A stretch of 64,000 nucleotides of DNA. It comes from Sarea resinae (taxonomy: Eukaryota). The translations under genes were made by a program, and so were the position numbers. This document shows positions 3,354 through 32,514 of this stretch, piece after piece. Position 1 is the first letter of the stretch, and every line of letters starts with the position of its first letter. The stretch spans positions 124,001 through 188,000 of the forward strand of contig JAPEUD010000046.1 of NCBI GenBank assembly GCA_026026165.1. The letters are read 5' to 3'. The notes under the pieces were generated by a model. That model made no database searches. It was not told the DNA's origin and was given only the letters and a program-made list of their open reading frames with translations.

Positions 3354-5479
3354 TCAATCGCGAGTAATGGGTCGCAAACCATTTGCTATATTTGCTATCT
3401 ACCGTCTTGCTACATAGTGGGAGCTGCAAAGGAAAGTAGATAAATCAGTAGCTCAGACACTCTACTGTATTGTGATTGCGCTCGCAAAATAAATCAGCAT
3501 ATAGTCGCCCCCACATAATTTCTATCACGGCCCGATGCTTGGATTCATCAATACAGAGTGATAATCTTGCAGACAATAGTTCAAGAACGTGGCACATACT
3601 ACCTACTAGATGTATAATCGTCCCTACCGTTGCTTTTGGCTCCTGGATAAGACTTCCTACCTTCCTTTCAATCCGGGCCGCCAACACGCCTCTGACCGTC
3701 ACCATGTTGTTTCAACATGTTCCCACGTGGCTTCATCAAAGTGAGGGGATTAGCACGACTATTGATATTCAATCTCGTATCACAACGTCAAGTTACTCTT
3801 GCAGAATCGACATCTATGCGTCTGCGCTCAGATGCGAGTATCAGACGGTTACCAATGAGTATCGTCAACCTGTCACAGGCCCATAGGCATCGCAAGCGGC
3901 CATTGTACAAGCATAACAGGCGTCAGGACCTTTGCAGGGGCAGGCTCCAGCCTCTGGCATCGCCGCATCGTCTCTACGATCAATATCTACCACTCATTGT
4001 TCACGATCATGCTTGTAGCCGATGGAACGATCAATCAGATGGCGGAAGCCATTACGCACATCCGGACGTCACAGAAAGGCAAGGCAATAACGGAAAGAAA
4101 GAGTTGGCTGATTGGCGTTCAAGGTCAGAAAGCCACCCCGTCTCCGGGTGTAACGTCGCCAACGTCAATTGCTGCGGTCGGCAATGGCGTCGTGAGGCGT
4201 CTACTTCGTACCCAGTCTCTGCTGACTTGGACACGAGAGTCTCAGAGCTGACCGCAAGAAGCATCTCTTGTGGAATGCGGGGAGTAAAAGGAGAAGCATC
4301 TTGGCAACGCTTTTGAGGACCTTCCGCCACGTCAGTGGGTGACCCGTTGGTGAATGCCAGCGATGCGATGCGACGCGATGCGATGCCCGAGGTTCTCGGC
4401 CGTGGCTGCTGAGCCGAGGGATGCTGAGGCCGGCAATCGCTGATTCATGGACGCGGCTTGTCTGGAATTATATAGGGAGTACGGAGTAAAGCTCTGGGAT
4501 CGAATTCAAACGCGAACACGACCAGCTGTGACGATGACGATGACGATGGACGATGCAGCGAGCATGGACGGAATGAAAAAGGAGCGACGATACTCTAATT
4601 TGGTGGCACTCAAGATGCAGCTTACATACTATTCCTACACCCCAAGTGCTTTAGCCCGGGATACGTGGCCTCCTTGTCTCGCTGCAGTCACATATGGATG
4701 AGGGAAATGAGAGTGTTCTGGCCGGGGTCTGGTCCCGACAGGGTAAAGTGATCCGGTATCGAGACGAATCACCTCGAAGATCAATACACGTTGGCCCACT
4801 CCAAACGGCGATCATCTTCCCATTCGATACCTCCCAGTTCGCATCGAGATGCACGATCCACCACCCAAGATTCGGCGGCTTTGCCAACTTGTTCCCTACT
4901 GGCTGCCTCACTTCGATCCTTCGACTCGCTCGGACCGCGATAGGATGAGCTAGAGTACGATATGGCCGCGGTAGTGTCATATTCCCCCACCAGGCAATTC
5001 CTCTTCCAGTCCCTCGCCCAGCTCCCTCCACCTATTCGGTGCTCTTCACCCTCCGTGGTCGTCCTAGTTCTAGGCCGCTCTTCCCTTTGCTGTACGACTA
5101 CGGCAGCCTCTTGGCATGCCGGTTTGCTCCTAGGTAATATTTACTGTCAATTTTAGAGCGTCCCCCCAGTCGCGACCCCTGCACCTCATGCACTGCCAAC
5201 CTGTCGGGCGAGAACTGCTCTGGATCAGCCGCGTCTCTCTGCTCGGTTCATAAGCCTGCCCTATCGCTGGTCAAAGCAAACCTTCCAAGCACTATCCATT
5301 TCGCTGTTCGCCTTACACTTCTCGTTGATCGTAACTCGTCCAAATCTCGAGTATCGTGAGTGGATCTGTCCTTTCGATTCTGCTGGACTTTCTTCTAACA
5401 TTGTGAGGCTTCAGAAAACCAAATATTGCCACCAACACCTTTCTGCCTCGCAAACCTACTTCCCTATCCGTATCAACTG

Positions 5480-7746
5480 ATGGCAGAGTCCGACAACTTT
5501 GGCGATAGCCTCGTCAGTAATATATTGCACGAAAAACAGACTCTCTGGCAGCAACATAGTCATCTCTCTGAACAGGAGCGACAACAGCTGTGGTCCCGCC
5601 GTGCAGCGCATCTGACTTCGATATTGGGAACAGACGCCGCCGGCAATAATCATGCTCAAACATCTTACCCGCAACAGCTTGCTCACATCCCTCGGAGTTT
5701 CTCGTCCCAAGGGAGTTCGATGACAAGACAGGAATCTGTAAGCCACCCGTGCTCACTTATTTTCCGTCTGTGAATATTAACATTGATTAGGGCTGTGAAA
5801 CCCTCCAAGGCACCGAGCCGATACGAAATCTATCCCAGCAGTCCGCACCCGCAGCCATCTCTATGTCCAGGACGGGTTCCAGCCTGTCGAAAACAAGCAA
5901 CTCCCCTTTCTCAAGCACAGGTGCCCACGTCCCACCTCTTAACTCAGTGTCACAGCCTCCACCTCTCTCGGAATGGCAATCGAATCACGACGAGCCGTTC
6001 AACGCGTACACCTTCGTACCACCAACCAGTCATCGACCCATCGACTCCCACCGAAGTCAACTCTCTCGAGTAGCAGAAGTCAGTGCCGAGGTCTACGATC
6101 CCTCCGAATACATCTCGCAGCTGCCAGAAGACCTTTCTGCCACTCCGGGTCTGTCGTTTACGCCCTCGCCCGCCTCTGCCAACTTCGATAGCTTCGACTC
6201 AAGTCCTCACGGGGTCTCGATGCCCTTATCAAATCCTCTTGGTACTTTTGCAAACTACACCTCTCCGGCATCCCCTACAACGGGCGAAATGTCGAATGGT
6301 AGAATTTTCGCAAGTGACATGAGCCGTCAAACCAGCATGGCTGGCAGTTCATTCTGTGGCGGTTTTGATATGTTGAGATTTTACTCCAATGCGTCTGAAT
6401 TTGACATGAATGGAGATCAGTCTCTATTCGATCGGTCTCGGTCAGCTGCCAAAGGCAATGACGGTGGTGATGTCTTGCTTTCGGAGAACGAGCGTTCTCA
6501 TTTTCTTCTTCATGCTGGTGGTGTTGGTGAAAATGCTCAATTTTCTCACCCTTCTTTTCCTTCTTGTGCTGTTACTGCACCTTCTGACTCATCGTCATCG
6601 GCGAACGCTGTTGTGGAGGATATGAGGCGGTCGCTTTCGGACGAAAGTAACGGTTCGTCGGCTTCTTCAGATCAAGATCAATCTCGTTCGTCACGTCGAA
6701 GACAACACGAGCAGCAGCAGCTAGCGCAAGCTGTGCGGCCAATTGCCCCAAAGCAGCCAAATGATGCTGCTGCTGCTGCCTCTTCGATCGCAATGTCTAC
6801 GTCGAGAGATGCTTCGGCTTCGGCTCCAAAGATGCTTCGCATCCAGTCTAGAGACGGCTCAATGTCAGATGACAAACTAGTTGCTATGATTCCTAAGACT
6901 GCTTACGTTCGTCCCTCTCACCCTCGCGTGATGTGCAAGCGATGCAACGACCATCCCGACGGTTTCCGCGGCGAACATGAGCTGCGTCGCCACACCGATA
7001 GATATCACCAAGTCATCCGAAAAGTATGGGTCACCGTTGATATCTCAAAAGACAAGAAATTCCTCGCCAATTGCAAGGCGTGTCGCTCGGGCAAGAAATA
7101 CGGTGTCTACTATAATGCTGCTGCTCATCTTCGCAGGGCGCACTTCAATCCCCGGAAGAGGGGCAGAGGCAAGGGCAAGAGTGATGAGAGGAGGGGTGGT
7201 AAGGGAGGTGGCGATCACCCACCGATGGATGAGTTAAAGAAATGGATGAGAGAGGAGGAGGAGCTTGTCGAGGACAATACGCTTCCTCTGGCACAACAAC
7301 GTCGAATCGACGACATGGGCACTTCAGATGCTGCCCAGCAACAGGAAGCTCTCATCAACTGTGGCGCTCCGCAGATGCAACATTCTGCTAGCACCAACTC
7401 CCTCGACAGTTGCTCGTCCTTCATCCCTGACCCAAACATCCAGATGTCTCTCTACGCGGACCCGGTGAACCCCTCCGATCTCAGTCAACAGCCGCAGTTC
7501 TTCAATCCAGCGTTTGATTCGGCTTTTGATGCGACTCAAATGGCCATGCCAATGTCAATGTCTGTGCCCTTTGGCGTGGCGACGAACAATACTGTTTTGC
7601 CTGCTGGGTTCGAACCCTCGTTTCCGGCGGGTGATCCGACGACGACGTGGAATGTGGACCCGATGCAAACACAGCAGCAGGAGCAGCAACAGGGACAGCC
7701 GATGTTCGAGGATGGCGCAGTATTTGCTATGGATATCCCTCAGTGA
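5480..7746 (+). CDS. Putative fungal C2H2-like zinc-finger protein (KLAP1 'key lime pathogenicity protein'-like; DUF7896-type from memory)
   Basis: Exon 1 ATG 5480-5737, phase-0 intron 5738-5790 joining in frame to the 5863 ORF; motifs CKRCNDHPDGFRGEHELRRH and CKAC..YNAAAHLRRAHF, basic NLS-like PRKRGRGK, S/Q-rich flanks; probable 5'UTR intron 5356-5414. Confidence 0.75.
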
Positions 7747-23798: not shown

Positions 23799-24119
23799 TT
23801 TGCGCGTCAGTATTTCAGAGGCGTCCGTAGCTCAATGATTCTATCTGCGGAGTTTGCTTCTCCTTAGATAGACTATGATGTCACCATTGGCGTTGATGGG
23901 ATCGGACACAAACAGAACGATCATGGTACAACGGGTTTCTGATATCTCTCGACTTATTTCTAACGCTGGGCTAACAACGCTCGGAGATCGAATCGACTGA
24001 ACAAGATTAACATTGTCCCCAATGCCGTGAACCATCACCCACGTGCAGATGTTAGCTGAAGAATGGCCTTGTGAAACGTGCCAATGCAAATGCCAACAGC
24101 AGAGTGTCATGTTCGCCCG

Positions 24120-24941
24120 TTAAGGACTGGCCGTCGCTCGTTGAAGCTGTTCGCTGTCGATCACGAATCCGTAGCTATTGGCGACGTTGTGCTCACAGAC
24201 ATCTTTCGCGCCTTGGCCAGTGGTGGTCGCGGCGCAATCCCCAACCAGGAGACAATCCCAGCCCCAACTATAAGCATCAGTCAATGTTCCGAGCACGCAT
24301 TGATCCGTGTTCACCCCGGCGAACAGGATGGTCTGCTTCCCACTCTCTAACAAGTACTTGAGAAGTGGCTGGGCGGGACTCCAGAGACCGCTCATACGAT
24401 TCTTTGAGCAATGGACGTCGTCATCGGCCACGACGGACTTCAAGGGCGGATAGATATCTGCGTTCCAGCTACCGGCAAAAAGACAACGCCCTTTGCCGTT
24501 ACCTAGATCTGCTCCCAGGCCTCGATAACCGGTGTTGGTGCCCGCGATCAAATCACGGCCGAATCCTCTCTGGAGGCTGGGTGGCATGGTCAATGCATCG
24601 TCGTCGGTCAAGCCCCAGTTAAGCCACACGACTTGGATGCCTTCCGTTCGAGATTTCTCGATGACTCTGGTTAGCGGGGCAACGGCGGCCAAGCCAAGAG
24701 GATTCTCTCGACAGTCGGGGTGGAGAAAGAAGTTCTGCATGTCGACGATCACCAAGGCCGTCTTCTGTGGGTCGATGGTGACCGCCTTATGAAGTGACAA
24801 GCCATCATCTGTCGGGATGGTCAATTGTTTGGCAGAACTCCTGGAAAGATCAAAGATTTTCGTCGTAGGATCGAATGTCCATTTGTCCGTGGAGCCGAAG
24901 TCGATGGGCTCGGCGGAAGTCTCAATGAGAGAGTCGGCCAT
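24120..24941 (-). CDS. Isochorismatase-like cysteine hydrolase
   Basis: Triad motifs TALVIVDMQNFF (D), SKNRMSG (K) and AGVNTDQCV (C); single exon, 273 aa. Confidence 0.92.
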   Translation of the reverse strand: MADSLIETSAEPIDFGSTDKWTFDPTTKIFDLSRSSAKQLTIPTDDGLSLHKAVTIDPQKTALVIVDMQNFFLHPDCRENPLGLAAVAPLTRVIEKSRTEGIQVVWLNWGLTDDDALTMPPSLQRGFGRDLIAGTNTGYRGLGADLGNGKGRCLFAGSWNADIYPPLKSVVADDDVHCSKNRMSGLWSPAQPLLKYLLESGKQTILFAGVNTDQCVLGTLTDAYSWGWDCLLVGDCAATTTGQGAKDVCEHNVANSYGFVIDSEQLQRATASP

Positions 24942-26595
24942 GCAGAGGGATCAAAATTACGAAGCAGTTGCAAATGCAATCGACGAAACGATCAAGACAA
25001 GTTGAAGCAGAATCAGCTGAGGTCAATTAAAGAGATGTTCGCTCTCCACAATGAGAGGCCTCTAATTCACGAGGTATGCACGTCTATGCTCTCACACGAG
25101 ATGGATGTGGATGCCTTGTGCGGCAGCGAATGTGCTGATGCTGCTTTCACGATCGATCGACGATAAGACATGCTGATTCGACGATGATCAATACCGTGCC
25201 ATGGGTGGAGATAAGATAGATGAGGATGGGATCAACAATATGATCGGAAGAGAGGAGGAGGGATCTCCGGTACCCTCAAGCGAGTGGCCAATCCATTTAG
25301 TCGGCGAGGGGTTGCTGATGGTTGATCCCCACCATGTCTGGAGTACTCCGGAGTCTGAAGTAGAGTCAGATCGAAATCAAGGGATACGAGTATGTGCGAC
25401 TACGGGGTACTCTACATCTCCGCAGCCGTGATGATGGCTATCGAGTGGCGAATGTCAAGAGCCCAACGGTCTTCGGCTTCTCCAGGATGGGATTGCTTTG
25501 TGATAGAAGATGAATAGGAGTCCCTTCGAGTCATGGAGGTTGCCGCGAAGAGACGAGACGAAAAAAGAAGATAGCAAGCCGTGATTCTAGAAGCGTCATC
25601 TCTGGATTGGTGGTGAACAAGCCGGAAGGACTGGGAGGGCAGAGCAGAGCAAGACAGGGCAGGGCAGGGCAGGGCGGAGAGCACCAAACTAATGCAAGAC
25701 GTGCTCGCGCAACCCTTAGACACCGCGACGGCTTCCCAATTCGGTCCTGGGCCGGCTGCAGTCATCTGCGTCTATTGTTGTCCGTGTCGACACTGTCGCG
25801 TGTCCAATGCCCATGGGGAATCAGGGAGGGCTGGTTATCCGGTCAAGCCCATTGGGTGGTCCGAACCCGAACATGCTCGACATGGCTCACAGGCTCAACT
25901 CGCTCAACATGGTCGGGTATTGGCTCGCGTCGACTTGTGGTCGATTGTGGTCGATCGACGCATTGCCGAGATCGAGGGCTGGGTCGTGATATGCGTCCAT
26001 CTGACCGATGCCATGGGAGAACCTTTGGAACGAGACTTGAGCATGCAGGATGCAGACAACCAGCGGACACCCTAGGGCATCCACTCCGTACGGCCCGCAG
26101 CGGCAAGCTGGTGCTGTCCTGTCCTGTCCATCCATCTCATGGACTGATACCTGCATGATTAGATTGCCCCATGGTTCCAGATACTCTGCGACCATGATGA
26201 AAAATCCTTCTTCTCACGTAAGGTAATGTGGAAGAAGGTGGACCAACCCGGGTCGAGCCAGCGGTATTCTCTACTCGCTGTACAATACTCTATCGTCTTC
26301 ATGATCCCTCCCCGGACGGGACAGGGAAAAGCCCTGGAGGTCGGATGGACCGTCTGCTTTAAGAGCCATGCGCGACTCGAGAGATGGATGGCGCATCCAG
26401 GAACCATATCCGTGCTCTATCTCCGTACCGGCCGCCCATGATCCATAGTGCCACATGGGTCCGGCCAGCAGTGAAGCTGGTTCGCGAGTTTCACGCCGGT
26501 ATCAGAGAGAACGATATGCGACCACGACGACCATGACGACCACGACGACCACGGCGGAGACTACTGCTGCAGCTCTCGCTACTATCCCTAGTACG

Positions 26596-26658
26596 GTATC
26601 TCTAGTATCTCTAGTATCTCTAGCATCTCTAGCATCTCTAGCATCTCTAGTATCTCTA
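26596..26658. repeat. 9-bp tandem repeat G(T/C)ATCTCTA x7
   Basis: Directly visible: 3x GTATCTCTA, 3x GCATCTCTA, 1x GTATCTCTA. Confidence 0.9.
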
Positions 26659-28887
26659 GTCTCTGGTGTTTCTGCCGCCCATTCCGCGGCGTTCCAAGAC
26701 GGTCTAGAAAGTCGGACAGGACGAGCACCTACTATGTACACGGGTACCAGCAGATACATACGACAGTACGAACTTTGTAGAGTCAAAGGGGAGATGCCAC
26801 GACTCCCGTTTCGATGCTCGTGAAGGCTGTGAATGCGTAGTGGGTGTTCTGAGCTTGCTTCGTGGCCTCTTCGTTCCTTCCAGAGTCAAGTCGAGACGGA
26901 TGGGGATGGGGTGGCCCGATTGCGTGCATTCTGTGTCCTGTGTACTGTGTACGAGTATTCTGTGCATCCATCCATGATGGATCCAATGTACGAAGTACTC
27001 TACCGTATCGATGAGACGAAGTGGCAAGTACCAAAACGTGCATGATTGCAAGCCACCTCCATACGGCGGTACGCTGTACTCGGAGTACTTCATACTATGA
27101 GTATCATAGTACTCCCTCCATACCAGGACAATCCAATCCCTCGACTGACCCATGGCGGCATCGTTCCTGTTGACTCTGCGATGATCGTCGTCTCGGGCTC
27201 GCCTCCAAGGCTCCCAATGTGTGTACCCGTCCACCCCAACGCCTTAGTGGCCCGACCTGCCTGAAGACGCAGAACAGTATTTACATATCAACACTTCCCT
27301 ATCCCTCTACCCAACCTGGCTTTGGCTCTGGCTCTGGCTCTGGCTCTTCCTGATTATTGTTCAACCTACCTGACCTATATCCTTTCCCGCCTCGGACCAC
27401 AGGCCAGCTGGTTTCCTCACAGAGCACCGAGTTGACGGAGCATCTGACAGCGCCGTCGTAGTCCGATCTCAGACCTGTCCTTTCCTGACGTCCGGCCGAC
27501 AGAAGGCACCAGACGGCCCCGCGGCATCTTCAGCGCACCGCCTTTTGCTCCAGCGGCTCCTGACTATTCATCGGTGCCGAAAGAGTGTCAAAGTGCGCCA
27601 GTGTCTAGATCCGACTACGCGGACAGGTCTCGCCATTTCAACGGTTTAGCGACCAGAAGAATCGCGATAAAGGACGGGCACTTGACTCATACCGTGATCA
27701 GAGACGAGACAAGAGTCAAGCGACAAAGGGCAAAAGACGATAGGCAGCAGGTACTTTGGCCCTTCTTTTGACTACCGCGTCGTACCTTACTTAGTGGGAA
27801 AGAAGTCCAGAGGTACACCGGTCCGCAACCTGCCTGGCCGACCGTGCGTTGCTCGACACAAGTACCTACCTCGTCCCTCGTCCACACGTTTTCGCTCACC
27901 TTTCGCTCACCGTTCGCTCACCGCAACAACAACCTTCCAAGTGCGGCGACCGGTACGACGCACCGCAGACGACACTACAATCGTCTACATCCTGACACGC
28001 CCAACCACAGCGACAACTTCGTGTACTCGATTCGAATCCCAGCGTCCTCGATACTCCTCTCCCTCGACCCCCCACACCCATATCCATCCCACTGACGCAA
28101 GGGCGCTGCTGAATCCTTGAATCCTTGAAGTCCTTGCTCACCCCTCCCCCATCCTGTTCCGCAGAAACCAGCTATCGTGAAGTTCAATTGAAGTCGAGGT
28201 GAATCCTAGAAAGAGGCAAAAGAACACGGCTTTGTACGCTTGGTACGTGGCTCGACCGGACAATCACGCCGCACCAAGGGCTTTTTGAGTCGTCGCTCCT
28301 CGCTATCCCTGCCGGCTAGTTTAGTGTGCGGAAAATAGAAAGTCACTCGACCACTCAACGTCGCCTCTATACCATCCCCGTCTTACCGGTACCCACCCCC
28401 GACGTCACCCTATCTCACTTCCTCTTCGCACCGATCGATCCGCTTCGCTCGAGCCAGGCAATAATTTCAAGACTTCAACCTGCTTCACGTCGATTTACAT
28501 CTCTCGATCATCTGTCGAAGAAAGCGTATACCATCCTTTGTTTGAGCTCCATTAGCGATCGTGCTCTTCTGTTTCCTGAGGAACCACCTCACCTACTTCG
28601 CATTCTTCGGAAACATAAACCTAAATCGCCGTCTTCGATCATCTTCCGCCTCAAGCAACTTGGGCGCACGGCTTCATCTCCGAGAATTACGATTCCGTTC
28701 ACGCCGATACCTTGGACCCGCCACGACAACAAGGATTTTTAAGATAGACCCCCAATACTGCCATTGAAGATCCTAGACTTACCTGGGAGACTATCGCTCG
28801 AGTGGACCCGTCCAGCCCTCGGCAATTCGAAACCAACGCAAAGGCTTATCATTTAACTCTGGACGTCTGGTTTCGAGACGGGTGTTG

Positions 28888-28965
28888 ATGGTTTTGTTAC
28901 GAGGGAAGAATTTAAAGATCATCTGCTGCAAGGCAATATCGAGGAGGGCGTTATATCCGAGGTGA
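28888..28965 (+). promoter_or_regulatory. Candidate uORF (25 codons, MVLLRGKNLKIICCKAISRRALYPR*)
   Basis: First + strand ATG after a 1.67 kb ATG-free stretch; weak -3 context (T); stop 35 nt before the main ATG at 29001. Confidence 0.45.
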
Positions 28966-29000
28966 AGCGGGCCCCAGAGACTGCTGCGGGGCTGATAGCC

Positions 29001-30968
29001 ATGTCGACCCCGTCGCTGCCGCCACGGCGGCTGCCAGAGCCTGTCGAGACGACGACGAAAACCTCGCGCCGTTTCGTGCCGGAGCCGACCGAGACCACCA
29101 CCCAGAGTAGCCGCCGAAAGAACGGCGGAGGCCAGCCTGCCAACGTGAAATGGCAATCGGAGCACGTCGAGACGGCCACCAAACCCTCACGACGCTTCGT
29201 ACCCGAGCCTACCGAGACGACCACGAAAAGCAGCCGCTCAAAGGCTGCGCGAGGCCAAGCTGGCGATGCTAGCCCGAAAACCACTCCACAACCTATAGAA
29301 ACATCCACCAAGAGTAATAGAAAGGGTAGCCCACCCGAGGGCAGAGAAAGGTCACCGGAGAAAGCTCCTCGAAAATTTGTGCCAGAACCCATTGAGATAT
29401 CGACCAAGACTAGTCGAAGAAGATTCACGCCGCAGCTGATAGAGACGACCAAAAGGACACGCAAGTCGGGGGATGTTGCGCCAGCGCTCTTACCTACGGA
29501 TAAAACTGAGGTGTCCCCAGGCGACGATCTCAAACTGCCACGACACGCCAGGTTGCAACAGGAGGGGTTGGCTGGTGTTCCGGAAGATGCTACCTCGACT
29601 GCTGTGGGTACGGGGTTGCATCCACCTCGAAGATCCTCCTCTCTTCATCCTCACGTCAACACACGTCGCCATTCTTTTGCCGTACCAGCGTTAGAAGCCA
29701 TTGAGTCCAATTCGGAGGACGATGATTCAAACTGTCCGTCTCTATCTACATCAGCCTCGGCGTCCTCTTCTGACAATATATCCGAGCTCTATAAGCATGC
29801 CACTCGTGTACGGGAGAGCTGTGATGACCGTTTCTCGGGCTATTTGCTCGCTCTGGCCGCCAAAGCTGCCGAAAAGCAACTCAGAGAATCGGCTCTGGCT
29901 GTCTATCCAAACGAAGAATTTCACGAGACGGTCGACCACTACATCGATACAACCTCCGATCTCTCTTCTGAGGGGGCATTGACCTCTCGATCTTCATCGA
30001 GAGACGAGGATGGCGACGTCAACATGGATCGAAGAGAGTCGGCCGCCGGTATCGGTTGGGAACTGTTAGAGATGCGGAAACATCAAGAACGGATGGCGGA
30101 GAAGAAGGCAAAACGAGAGGCCTCATTGACGCTATCCCAATCTCACTCGAACACAGCTCAAGTTGCCAGGGGAGCGAATGATGCTTCTGCCGCGCCAAAG
30201 GACAAACTGGGTGGTTGGAAAAAGGGTGCCGCTCTCAAATCGATGAAAGAAGCCGCGAGCCCACCACTCTTGGGCGCCGACATCAAGTTTCCGAGGTGTC
30301 TTTCTCCCAAATCAACCAGACTGGACGTCGACCAGTATCCGAGAAGCCATCAAGGCTCCCCGACCAGCTCTCAGGAAGCCGTCGAGACCGGGGGTTTGTG
30401 GGCAGTGGGGGGAGAGTCCCCGAAGAGCAAAAAAGCTGGAGGCTTGTGGATGGGCTGTTGTAAGGCTGCAGACGAGCCGGCACCACAGTCTCCCCGTGGA
30501 ATCATGACGCCCGCGATAGAGAAAGAGGATCCGTTCAATTCCGTCTCGGTGGCTGGCTTGTTCAAGCCTCCCGGGAAGGCAGCCCGTCCCGACAACATAC
30601 CTGGCATCGACAATGTCATGTCCAAGGAAGAGGAAATGGAGCGCGAGTTCAACGACAGCTTCGTCACTCAGGTGTACAACTATCTGTCGCTGGGCTACCC
30701 ATCCGTCGCTCGCAAGTTTGACGAAGAGCTCAGCAAGATCTCTCGAGTGCCTGTCGAGGAGCTCAGCAAGGATGACCAGCGTGCCAATGCCAAAGGATAC
30801 GTGGACATCGGCTTAGAGGACGGATCACCGGCGCACAATGAGTGTGCCCGATGGAGAGCTCTCCGGGCCTATATATGGGAATGGGGGCGGCAACGGCCAG
30901 GCATGGCCAAAGAAAGTGGCAACGGCCGATGGGGTGTTCTCGCGCGAAAAGGAAGCTGGGCGGTCTAG
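29001..30968 (+). CDS. Conserved fungal hypothetical protein with about 7 N-terminal 'RRF.PEP.ET' repeats
   Basis: Single long exon; repeats such as RRFVPEPTETTT; globular-looking C-terminus FVTQVYNYLSLGYP..ARKFDEELSKISR..WRALRAYIWEW..WGVLARKGSWAV; frame is open upstream to 28857. Confidence 0.85.
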   Translation: MSTPSLPPRRLPEPVETTTKTSRRFVPEPTETTTQSSRRKNGGGQPANVKWQSEHVETATKPSRRFVPEPTETTTKSSRSKAARGQAGDASPKTTPQPIETSTKSNRKGSPPEGRERSPEKAPRKFVPEPIEISTKTSRRRFTPQLIETTKRTRKSGDVAPALLPTDKTEVSPGDDLKLPRHARLQQEGLAGVPEDATSTAVGTGLHPPRRSSSLHPHVNTRRHSFAVPALEAIESNSEDDDSNCPSLSTSASASSSDNISELYKHATRVRESCDDRFSGYLLALAAKAAEKQLRESALAVYPNEEFHETVDHYIDTTSDLSSEGALTSRSSSRDEDGDVNMDRRESAAGIGWELLEMRKHQERMAEKKAKREASLTLSQSHSNTAQVARGANDASAAPKDKLGGWKKGAALKSMKEAASPPLLGADIKFPRCLSPKSTRLDVDQYPRSHQGSPTSSQEAVETGGLWAVGGESPKSKKAGGLWMGCCKAADEPAPQSPRGIMTPAIEKEDPFNSVSVAGLFKPPGKAARPDNIPGIDNVMSKEEEMEREFNDSFVTQVYNYLSLGYPSVARKFDEELSKISRVPVEELSKDDQRANAKGYVDIGLEDGSPAHNECARWRALRAYIWEWGRQRPGMAKESGNGRWGVLARKGSWAV

Positions 30969-32514
30969 CCTTGCAGCGCGCGATGAGTTGTATTTGAAAT
31001 GGAGGGGCGTTGTCTGGGTGAGAACACATTTGAGATTTTACGGCAGCAACAGCAGCAGCAACAGCAGCAACGTCACAGCGTGCTTGATACAAAGAAGTCT
31101 TTCCATTGCGATTAGAAGGTTGAGCGTTTGGTGCTTTTTTCAAGACATGGCGTCGCAGGGTTGGGTCTGGGTTTCTGATAGATGGCCGTTCCGGCTTTAC
31201 ATGCATGACGATCCATCTACGAGGAATGGGTGGGTCGCGACGGAAGGGTCGTGGCATGTACTCTGGTTCTCTCGGAACCTCCAAAAAGAGAAAAAGACTC
31301 GGGACGACGGCGGCAAGGCGTGCGCGTGCGGATCATGATCATCTTCCCCTCTTTCTGCTCCCTGCTATCCTTATCCTCCTTTCCTCTCATTGTGTCTTTT
31401 TCGGTCTGGCTGGATATATCATGCCATGCGACCAGCTCGGGAAGCGAAACATTTGTCTTGCTTGGTCAATGGAGCGGTCCTGTGGTTCATCCGCGACGAC
31501 GTAGAAGATGAAATTGAAGATTTCCATTCGCATGAAGCCGTGTCTGAATATGATGCTGGATGCACCCCTTGTGATGGCCTCTGATAAATGGAAATGGTAA
31601 ATGGTAAATGCTCGCCTACCTTTACGTTCGTGCTTCGCCCGGCAAAGGCGCGCTCGTGTCCAGCCAGTGACATTCTAGTACCACCAACTCGCGCTAGAGA
31701 TGGCTCTAGTACATGTAGTCGACGGTCAGCATCGAATTCTATTCTCATCGACGAATAATGGACGCGAGGACAACCAACGTACGTAGTATACTTCATACTA
31801 CGACGTAGTCCGTCCCTCGGTGCGGTTAGCATTGAGCAATTTCACGACCCTGCTCGGTGAATTACAGACAGATTCGGGCCTATCGCCGGCCCTCTTCTCC
31901 CTCTCCTTCTTCTTCTCCCCGCCTGTTGGCTTTGCTATCATGTATACTGCACTGTACTCTGCGGCTGCTGCCTGCTCGCTCTGCTTTTCTGCTGCTCTGC
32001 TGCTCTGCTGTTCTCTCCTTTTGCTGCTCTGCTATTGGCCTCTCCACATCTGTTCCCTTCCTTCGCCACATCGCCAAGCCCCGGCCGAGGTGCCAGTTAG
32101 TCAGGGCGCAAGCGCCATGGAGCAGATCCCCTGCTACTGCCCTGCTAGAGTGCTCACATAGTACTGCCCTGCTACTCTACCATGGGCCCTTTGATCCCTT
32201 GAACGGTTTAGGTCCTCCAATCCGCCCTGGGATGATTTCATCTCATGGCGCGCGCGTGGGACATGGCCCACGATCTTGCTCGAGTAGGGCCGTTGCACTG
32301 CACGGCTCCGCCTGTTGACATGGTTCTAATTTAATGTCCATATCACCCCCCCAGGCTCAGCCTTGTTTGTGCCACCCACAGAGTCGGAGTCATATAGTAT
32401 ATCGGTCGTTTTCTTTCGTTGACGGTGCGGTTGAAAAAGATCCAAGTCGCCGCTGCCATCTCGTTTTCATCTTCGCAGGCATCGCAGACGGCGTGCCATT
32501 GTCTGTCCGTCAAC

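Follow-up and report, generated by a model that had tools for sequence, protein, structure and literature searches.

[quoted passage not shown] The C. albicans EFG1 leader, of about 1.1 kb, is described as lacking an AUG uORF in strain SC5314 and as carrying one dispensable uORF of four codons in another strain (PMC6034079). Work in yeast reports that protein output responds only modestly when unstructured leaders are lengthened or shortened by an order of magnitude (PMC11722282). Upstream AUGs (uAUGs) are reported to reduce translation and can trigger NMD; the same account presents short, very uAUG-poor leaders as exceptional among fungi and gives uAUGs for 43% of the C. neoformans genes with annotated leaders (PMC7049704). 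Both uAUG purging and long regulatory leaders are already established, and the locus described here would be an added case rather than a new mechanism. The bZIP factors GCN4 of S. cerevisiae and cpc-1 of N. crassa are preceded by a 5'-proximal, very short and reinitiation-permissive uORF and by at least one inhibitory uORF downstream of it. A single uORF reportedly suffices for GCN4 control in C. albicans, as Sundaram and Grant are said to have found in 2014.

We analysed a window of 64 kb of Sarea resinae DNA (positions below refer to this whole stretch), in which the + strand contains no ATG over 27218..28887. The flanking + strand ATGs lie at 27181 and 27217 and then at 28888 and 29001. The ATG-to-ATG gap from 27217 to 28888 measures 1671 nt and is the largest of the window across the two strands, with runners-up of 575 nt (+) and 855 nt (-). 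The desert ends 113 nt 5' of the co-oriented start codon at 29001. The initial annotation had noticed this absence of ATG between 27220 and 28887 together with repeated CAT, and a recount returned the same picture (0 ATG, 21 CAT). CAT, the reverse complement of ATG, is at its expectation of 22.0.

The desert is real, strand-specific and far above what composition yields. The interval consists of 22.9% A, 33.1% C, 21.0% G and 23.0% T, and the 1669 nt without ATG would be expected to hold 18.5 ATGs from base frequencies or 12.8 under a first-order Markov model. The latter figure is conservative because the AT and TG counts are already lowered by the absence of ATG. None of 5000 dinucleotide-preserving shuffles was free of ATG (mean 12.7, sd 2.9, minimum 4), so the composition-matched comparison of ATG with CAT proposed in the initial annotation finds composition alone insufficient. 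No other trinucleotide of the 64 is as depleted in the interval as ATG (z -3.6). Its nine single-substitution neighbours are abundant (215 observed vs 182.5 expected), hence ATGs should arise readily in the desert by mutation. As a reference for gap length, 80 related fungal loci (640,087 bases, both strands, 1.28 Mb of strand-sequence) provided 21,689 ATG-to-ATG gaps with a mean of 58 nt, 99th, 99.9th and 99.99th percentiles of 314, 503 and 706 nt, and a maximum of 794 nt. ATG density is 17.0/kb in the window and 14.2/kb in coding DNA here. RIP was rejected as a cause of the missing ATGs, given that TA, at 64 of 1668 dinucleotide steps, shows no enrichment and that CAT occurs at its expected level.

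The composition of the desert is leader-like. On the sense strand, C exceeds G over 1.5 kb (GC skew about -0.24), which makes this one of the two most extreme domains of the window. In these fungi, the skew 5' of 77 long ORFs ranges from -0.09 to -0.14 within -400..0 and is about 0 beyond; the desert is therefore skewed in the same direction as ordinary leaders. The mean MFE per 150 nt is -31.7 kcal/mol for the sense RNA, compared to -42.6 for the flanks and -42.2 for the complement. Folding z-scores are about 0, which makes the low structure purely compositional, and selection for low structure as such was rejected. No gene was detected inside the interval. A Pfam search of 24 ORFs across about 25.4-29.2 kb gave no family at gathering score (the strongest match had E 0.011 and 16.6 bits, where 29.1 would be required), and an Rfam search of 4.2 kb at E<=1 gave a single match, which is sub-threshold. 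Scanning the interval for intron consensus sequences produced weak candidates, such as 27953-28010 with a GTACGA donor, none of them convincing. Comparing 24000-29000 with 80 fungal loci by tblastx and blastn yielded 0 matches, i.e. neither leader sequence nor synteny was conserved in this set, and a search of the desert against the window matched only the desert itself.

The downstream main ORF (29001..30968, +) is intronless here and encodes 655 aa. The product, of unknown function, is conserved in Ascomycota and disordered over most of its length; it carries RRFxPEPxETT repeats at the N-terminus and a conserved domain at the C-terminus. At E<=1e-3 it has 518 homologues, and the names among those listed are all "hypothetical" or uninformative. 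The start methionine at 29001 aligns with the starts of 14 homologues. Pfam has no family for the protein at E<=0.01, and a search at E<=1 with 15 aligned members of the protein family found no bZIP match for any of them. The Atlas model has a pLDDT of 0.45. TCO89 was considered as an identity and rejected, with the nearest named Atlas cluster at 0.77, under the level counted as more than a lead. RNA coverage of 26000-31500 is confined to an 809-nt RNA-library contig at 30751..31500 (about 99% identity, 8 differences) from a single metatranscriptome run (12% of words), which is mute on the leader.

The strand-specific desert, the C>G skew and the lack of a detectable coding or RNA gene make a long uAUG-purged leader the best explanation. 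We consider it most likely, with a probability of roughly 0.6, that 27218..28887 is the body of a scanned 5' leader of about 1.65-1.75 kb, purged of uAUGs, in the mRNA of the 655-aa protein. We infer under this reading where the transcription start site (TSS) lies, that the interval is exonic throughout and that the leader and its uORF have a regulatory role. Transcription would start shortly past the last upstream ATG at 27217. The stretch directly 5' of the desert (26734..27217, +) contains 15 ATGs in 484 nt, and the onset of the desert is abrupt. Over 26700-27220, there are 28.8 ATG/kb compared to 17.0/kb in the window, and 12 GTAC motifs (23/kb vs 2.6/kb in the window) form a cluster denser than any other of this motif in the 64 kb. 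This ATG-rich, GTAC-dense stretch may be a promoter or upstream regulatory region. A TATA-like TATTTACATAT at 27278..27288 (+), with a CT-rich tract and a (CTGGCT)5 repeat (27316-27347) on its 3' side, is a candidate core promoter and TSS zone. A plausible TSS would lie 3' of the TATA-like sequence, driven by the GTAC-dense 26.7-27.2 kb. The 40S subunit would load at the cap and the first AUG encountered would be used. Each new leader AUG would divert ribosomes from the main ORF, and purifying selection would have removed all of them as a consequence. The G-poor, C-rich composition would leave the sense RNA weakly structured and, thus, scannable.

The closest precedent is the WOR1 leader of C. 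albicans (PMC4552353). Together with the long leaders of CZF1, RFG1, EFG1 and FLO8, it resembles the proposed leader in its kilobase scale; WOR1 and, in strain SC5314, EFG1 are also alike in lacking AUG uORFs, as the proposed leader does up to -113. For the WOR1-type genes, however, TSSs were mapped and effects on translational efficiency were measured, whereas the leader here is proposed from its sequence. The WOR1-type genes encode master transcription regulators of a Saccharomycotina yeast, while the gene here encodes a mostly disordered Pezizomycotina protein of unknown function. The leader here also differs in ending in one uORF of 25 codons. The general depletion of uAUGs in fungi follows the same selective logic, but a single uAUG in a leader as long as about 1.7 kb would be far outside the typical picture.

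A single AUG uORF terminates upstream of the main AUG. It spans 28888..28965 (+), has 25 codons and a TGA stop, is in the +1 frame relative to the main ORF and has the start context GTGTTGATGG. The uATG is at -113 and the stop ends at -35, out of frame with the main ORF, leaving a spacer of 35 nt (28966..29000, +). The initial annotation had the uORF exactly so. Its description of the uATG context as weak is not clearly borne out; a crude matrix derived from the starts of 98 long ORFs gives -0.22 for the uATG and 0.21 for the main ATG, with means of 1.09 (sd 1.88) for presumed starts and -0.93 for all window ATGs. The uORF, opened by the sole remaining AUG of the leader, probably intercepts some of the scanning ribosomes and would thereby dampen or gate translation of the 655-aa protein. 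No counterpart of the uORF peptide occurs among the ortholog upstream regions listed. Within these regions, recurring uATGs are clade-internal only, with MPPKY[SP]E near -195 (loci L053, L058 and L060) and MRPIIH[EK]N[TS]D near -75 (L066 and L072).

The initial annotation likened the locus to GCN4 and cpc-1, with which it shares a long leader and uORF(s) upstream of a fungal ORF. In contrast to these genes, there is exactly one uORF here, of 25 codons and at the 3' end of the leader, it is not conserved among orthologs, and the protein has no bZIP domain. The analogy is therefore not supported. Systems with a single inhibitory uORF, such as C. albicans GCN4 or the mammalian CHOP/DDIT3 type, are alike in having one AUG uORF that ends shortly before the main start. 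They differ in that the uORF context here is not clearly weaker than that of the main start, and in that the uORF here is not conserved across classes. The long scanned leader under translational control suggested in the initial annotation is partly supported: the desert, the skew and the absence of a detectable gene inside favour a uAUG-purged leader, whereas gating of the GCN4/cpc-1 type is not supported.

Orthologs give the long leader partial support. The initial annotation looked to them for ATG depletion and a positionally conserved uORF; the full desert does not recur across 34 ortholog groups, nor the uORF peptide among the upstream regions listed, and a partial depletion over about 1 kb is seen in 11 Dothideomycete-like groups only. 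The 34 groups each offer at least 1200 nt of sequence 5' of the start, and the longest start-adjacent ATG-free stretch among them is 615 nt. In the 11 Dothideomycete-like groups, a subset of mutually related members defined post hoc after seeing the data, ATG:CAT ratios are 0.39, 0.36, 0.21 and 0.41 in four 250-nt bins to -1000, and then 1.00 and 1.56. The ratio is 0.87-1.05 in all bins of 44 control ORFs. All 11 groups fall under the Markov expectation for ATG in -1000..0, compared to 15 below, 8 above and 1 at expectation among the other 24 groups. The Dothideomycete-like subset carries a conserved TCCG-N7-YCCG element near -170..-195; if this is a promoter site, the leaders of these groups would be short. 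A single proximal uATG after a long gap was considered as a family trait and rejected as not significant against controls. A first-to-second upstream ATG gap of at least 250 nt occurs in 7 of 35 groups (window included) and in 4 of 41 controls (Fisher p 0.17; Mann-Whitney p 0.75).

The leading alternative, which we regard as unlikely, is a short leader. The TSS would then be near 29001, and the interval would be promoter or intergenic DNA, or a separate sense ncRNA, with the ATGs lost through composition and chance or through selection on that transcript. Typical leaders in these fungi do look short. In aggregate, ATG depletion and C>G skew both die away by about -350 to -400, and the 24 other ortholog groups are depleted in -250..0 only (ATG:CAT 0.53). 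The RNA contig covers 30751-31500 only, and TATA-like A/T-rich words occur inside the interval too. However, a promoter has no known cause to lose one trinucleotide on one strand. The absence was not reproduced by any of the shuffles, and the longest gap in the related strand-sequence is less than half as long. The desert also stops at the gene start and has a leader-like skew along its full length.

Pure chance in a G-poor stretch, picked as extreme by a very large scan, is very unlikely. The low G content of 21% does lower the ATG expectation to 12.8, with a Poisson P(0) of about 3e-6, and a scan of very many windows could yield such an event somewhere. Yet the tail of reference gaps drops about ten-fold per 200 nt, and extrapolation places a gap of 1671 nt near 1e-9 per gap. 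A chance desert must also adjoin a co-oriented start codon and match a skew domain, with CAT not depleted.

It is highly improbable that the interval is a leader used without end-to-end scanning, either through internal or cap-independent entry, with the AUG purge as a side requirement, or through an N-terminally extended isoform started at a non-AUG codon (CUG 28857). A leader with internal entry would need no AUG purge 5' of the entry site. The sub-threshold Rfam match, to the luteovirus BTE (RF00434) at 28181-28290 (+; 24.1 bits, E 0.033), might be a faint hint of such an element; as a BTE cap-independent element it was rejected, with a score far under the gathering score of 45 and several non-canonical pairs. 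The main frame stays open for 48 codons 5' of the main ATG, as far as a CTG that has A in position -3 and G in position +4, which is what an extended isoform would show. A conserved extension was nonetheless rejected, as the median in-frame openness is 13 codons vs 23 in the other two frames (35 groups, window included), and Pfam found nothing in the 48-aa extension. Hidden coding exons of a gene starting at or before 27217 are close to refuted, even with + strand stop-to-stop frames of up to 140 codons and a long 4-kb gap between annotated-looking genes, considering that all three frames are closed repeatedly, that neither Pfam on the 24 ORFs nor tblastx against the 80 loci found a family or similarity, and that 1.67 kb of coding DNA, at its ATG density, would be less likely than non-coding DNA to lack ATG in any frame.

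If the uAUG-purged leader is real, it would be among the longest AUG-free leaders recognized from sequence alone outside Candida. A broader reading is doubtful to us: a filamentous ascomycete would have a leader of about 1.7 kb that is AUG-free up to a terminal uORF and, together with the partial depletion in Dothideomycetes, the family would be a lineage-variable, translationally gated regulator. If true, the locus would be a natural demonstration that selection in vivo "sees" each AUG along some 1.7 kb of scanning. Strand-specific ATG gaps could help to find long leaders in fungal genomes that lack annotation. The leader, if real, would provide a clean natural substrate on which to study scanning over long distances and gating by a single uORF in filamentous fungi. 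It would also mark a protein that is widely conserved in Pezizomycotina as sensitive to dosage and probably translationally controlled.

The + strand carries ATGs at 27152, 27181 and 27217, and the next ones occur only at 28888 and 29001. Between 27217 and 28888 lies a gap of 1671 nt, which leaves an ATG-free interval at 27218..28887; on neither strand of the window are two successive ATGs farther apart, the runners-up measuring 575 nt (+) and 855 nt (-). The initial annotation had described this absence upstream of the gene together with a recurrence of CAT, the reverse complement of ATG, and both descriptions hold. CAT occurs 21 times in 27220-28887 and is at expectation (22.0). G is scarce in the desert (A 22.9, C 33.1, G 21.0, T 23.0 %), and the expected number of ATGs falls accordingly, to 18.5 on base frequencies and 12.8 under a first-order Markov model. 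A composition-matched null had been proposed as a check, and none of 5000 dinucleotide-preserving shuffles of the desert was free of ATG (mean 12.7, minimum 4). ATG is also the most strongly depleted of the 64 trinucleotides in the desert (z -3.6). The nine triplets that differ from ATG by a single base show no depletion (215 observed vs 182.5 expected), hence mutation should readily create ATGs there. The 80 fungal loci collected for the ortholog comparison served as an empirical yardstick. Their 640,087 bases, read on both strands, contain 21,689 ATG gaps with a mean of 58 nt, percentiles of 314 nt (99th), 503 nt (99.9th) and 706 nt (99.99th), and a maximum of 794 nt. The desert is real and significant, and composition does not account for the absence of ATG.

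The main ORF downstream (29001..30968, +) is intronless and encodes 655 aa, with a first Met that lines up with the first Met in 14 homologues. Among the candidates scored, 518 homologues were found at E<=1e-3, the best being 46 % identical; the matches belong mostly to lichen-forming and Dothideomycete fungi and carry 'hypothetical' or otherwise uninformative names. The protein has RRFxPEPxETT repeats at the N-terminus and a conserved C-terminal domain, and a Pfam search with it returned no family. Its Atlas model is of low confidence (pLDDT 0.45), which is consistent with a disordered protein. The uORF opening at ATG 28888 (28888..28965, +) was confirmed as 25 codons in a different frame from the main ORF, ending 35 nt before 29001. 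The weak context ascribed to its start is not clearly borne out, as a crude matrix from 98 long-ORF starts scores the uATG at -0.22 and the main ATG at 0.21. The uATG is not clearly the weaker site and should therefore capture a share of scanning ribosomes. The main-ORF frame stays open 5' of the ATG for 48 codons (28857-29000, +), as far as a CTG that has A at -3 and G at +4. The extension peptide is protein-like in appearance (..DGFVTREEF..), has no Pfam match and is unconserved among orthologs. One metatranscriptomic run from wood decay contains 12 % of the sampled words. Compared with 26000-31500, it yielded one 809-nt contig, on 30751-31500 only and with 8 differences; this indicates no more than the presence in an RNA library of the organism or of a ~99 % identical strain. 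The contig takes in the final 217 nt of the CDS and then runs on for over 530 nt, as far as the compared stretch reaches; this extension may belong to a long 3' UTR or to a convergent transcript.

The best available, if unproven, reading of the interval is a long leader purged of AUGs. The nearest recognizable upstream gene is an isochorismatase-family ORF at 24120..24950 (-). Across the 4 kb separating it from the main ORF, none of the 24 ORFs scanned is Pfam-detectable (best match E 0.011, well below its cut-off), and no Rfam family reaches its gathering score. The 484 nt directly 5' of the desert hold 15 ATGs. Nowhere in the window is GTAC more densely clustered than at 26736-27223 (12 per 500 nt vs 2.6 per kb overall); several of the copies there read GTACTC or TGTGTAC, and the cluster ends 6 nt past the last ATG preceding the desert. 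The cluster may be a repeated promoter cis-element. A TATA-like TATTTACATAT follows at 27278-27288 (+), and then a CT-rich tract and a (CTGGCT)5 repeat. The region looks like a putative promoter situated right at the desert's 5' border. Short tandem repeats at 26519-26664 and 27316-27347 (CGACCACGA x3.9, GTATCTCTA x7.7 and CTGGCT x5.3) occupy the putative promoter and leader start. Among 77 long ORFs from the window and the related loci, a sense-strand C>G skew of -0.09 to -0.14 is confined to -400..0, with unskewed sequence beyond, so that such skew marks the leader and proximal promoter in these fungi. In the desert, the GC skew is about -0.24 over 1.5 kb, which makes it one of the window's two most strongly skewed domains, and the skew stops near the start codon. 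This is a second strand asymmetry, independent of the absence of ATG. The only other 1.5-kb domain of comparable C>G skew (-0.25), at 4700-6300, covers the start of a + strand ORF (5863..7746) together with sequence 5' of it, and holds 13 ATGs, hence no desert. A TSS proximal to the gene, with the interval being something else, is unlikely.

Chance is a still less likely explanation. Large scans do select extremes, but the probability of finding no ATG is about 3e-6 under a conservative null (Poisson estimate), and extrapolating the empirical gap tail gives an estimate of about 1e-9 per gap. The desert must additionally adjoin a co-oriented start and coincide with a skew domain. Internal entry or a CUG-initiated extension is, if anything, even less probable. 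The former could draw on similarity to the cap-independent translation element BTE of luteoviruses at 28181-28290 (+), but this Rfam match is sub-threshold (24.1 bits vs a gathering score of 45; E 0.033 when 4.2 kb was searched), includes several non-canonical pairs and is probably due to chance. The latter would exploit the open frame upstream of the main ATG, against which stands its lack of conservation in orthologs. Hidden coding exons inside the interval are close to excluded.

If the interval is an AUG-purged leader, cap-dependent scanning would cover roughly 1.65-1.75 kb from which selection would have stripped every AUG. The leader would terminate in the single out-of-frame uORF shortly before the main AUG, and this uORF would probably damp or gate main-ORF translation. 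The sense RNA of the desert is predicted to fold weakly because of its composition (mean MFE per 150 nt -31.7 kcal/mol, compared with -42.6 in the flanks and -42.2 antisense). Folding z-scores are ~0, giving no sign that structure was selected beyond composition. Leaders of the GCN4 and cpc-1 kind carry multiple uORFs ahead of a bZIP product, the first of them short and permissive. The putative leader described here differs in having one uORF of 25 codons and in preceding a product without a bZIP match. Of the translational control proposed in the initial annotation, the long AUG-purged leader thus stands as the best available reading, whereas gating of the GCN4/cpc-1 type is unsupported since its defining features are absent here. 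[quoted passage not shown] In Cryptococcus, uAUGs located over 20 nt from the TSS reduce translation and promote NMD, and very uAUG-poor leaders are described as the exception among fungi (PMC7049704). The nearest precedent for the desert is the Candida albicans WOR1 leader (1978 nt, no AUG uORFs; PMC4552353), and the ~1.1 kb EFG1 leader has no AUG uORF in strain SC5314 (PMC6034079). The literature, searched for mechanisms rather than for the family, yielded no description of this family's leader.

Start codons were placed in 66 of the 80 related loci as the first in-frame ATG after an upstream stop, most showing a conserved M..PPRRFxPEPxET start. At least 1200 nt of upstream sequence was available for 56 loci (57 with the window), forming 35 groups, window included; locus L032, which has 1190 nt of upstream sequence, was included manually in the ATG-depletion analyses. 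The desert predicted for orthologs is absent in every group apart from the window itself, the longest ATG-free stretch adjoining the start region being 615 nt (locus L071). No related locus shares leader sequence or synteny with the window. The first two upstream ATGs are at least 250 nt apart in 7/35 groups, compared with 4/41 ORFs of the control set (Fisher p 0.17; Mann-Whitney p 0.75). A positionally conserved uORF had also been proposed, and the window uORF peptide has no counterpart among the ortholog upstream regions listed. Conserved uATGs are clade-internal, near -195 (MPPKY[SP]E in L053, L058 and L060) and near -75 (MRPIIH[EK]N[TS]D in L066 and L072). The latter uORF comprises 10 codons (MRPIIHENTD, MRPIIHKNSD), is kept between diverged orthologs and stops ~41 nt before the main ATG in both. 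Dothideomycete-like orthologs (L049, L053, L054, L058, L060, L062, L069 and others) conserve a TCCG-N7-YCCG element at about -170..-195, with an ATG directly 5' of it in 7/12 aligned sequences, creating short uORFs such as MPPKY[SP]E. The element could be a promoter site or a leader element; if a promoter site, the leaders of those orthologs would be short. The comparison lends no support to a conserved uORF common to the window and the family.

Depletion of ATG in orthologs was recovered in part. In 24 groups, it is limited to -250..0 (ATG:CAT 0.53, farther out 0.98-1.33). The remaining signal comes from 11 mutually related groups chosen post hoc by the N-terminus RRF[KHQNE][VIP]E[PL], a form that occurs in named Ascochyta, Glonium and Mytilinidion proteins. 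In this post hoc subset, ATG:CAT is 0.39, 0.36, 0.21 and 0.41 in 250-nt bins to -1000 (1.00 and 1.56 beyond) and ATG observed/Markov-expected is 0.48-0.68, compared with 0.87-1.05 and 0.92-1.04 in 44 control ORFs. ATG falls below Markov expectation in -1000..0 in all 11 of these related groups. The principle of long regulatory leaders and uAUG purging is known already, and the desert would add a further case. The upstream sequences give partial support to long ATG-poor leaders as a trait that may vary among lineages in this gene family.
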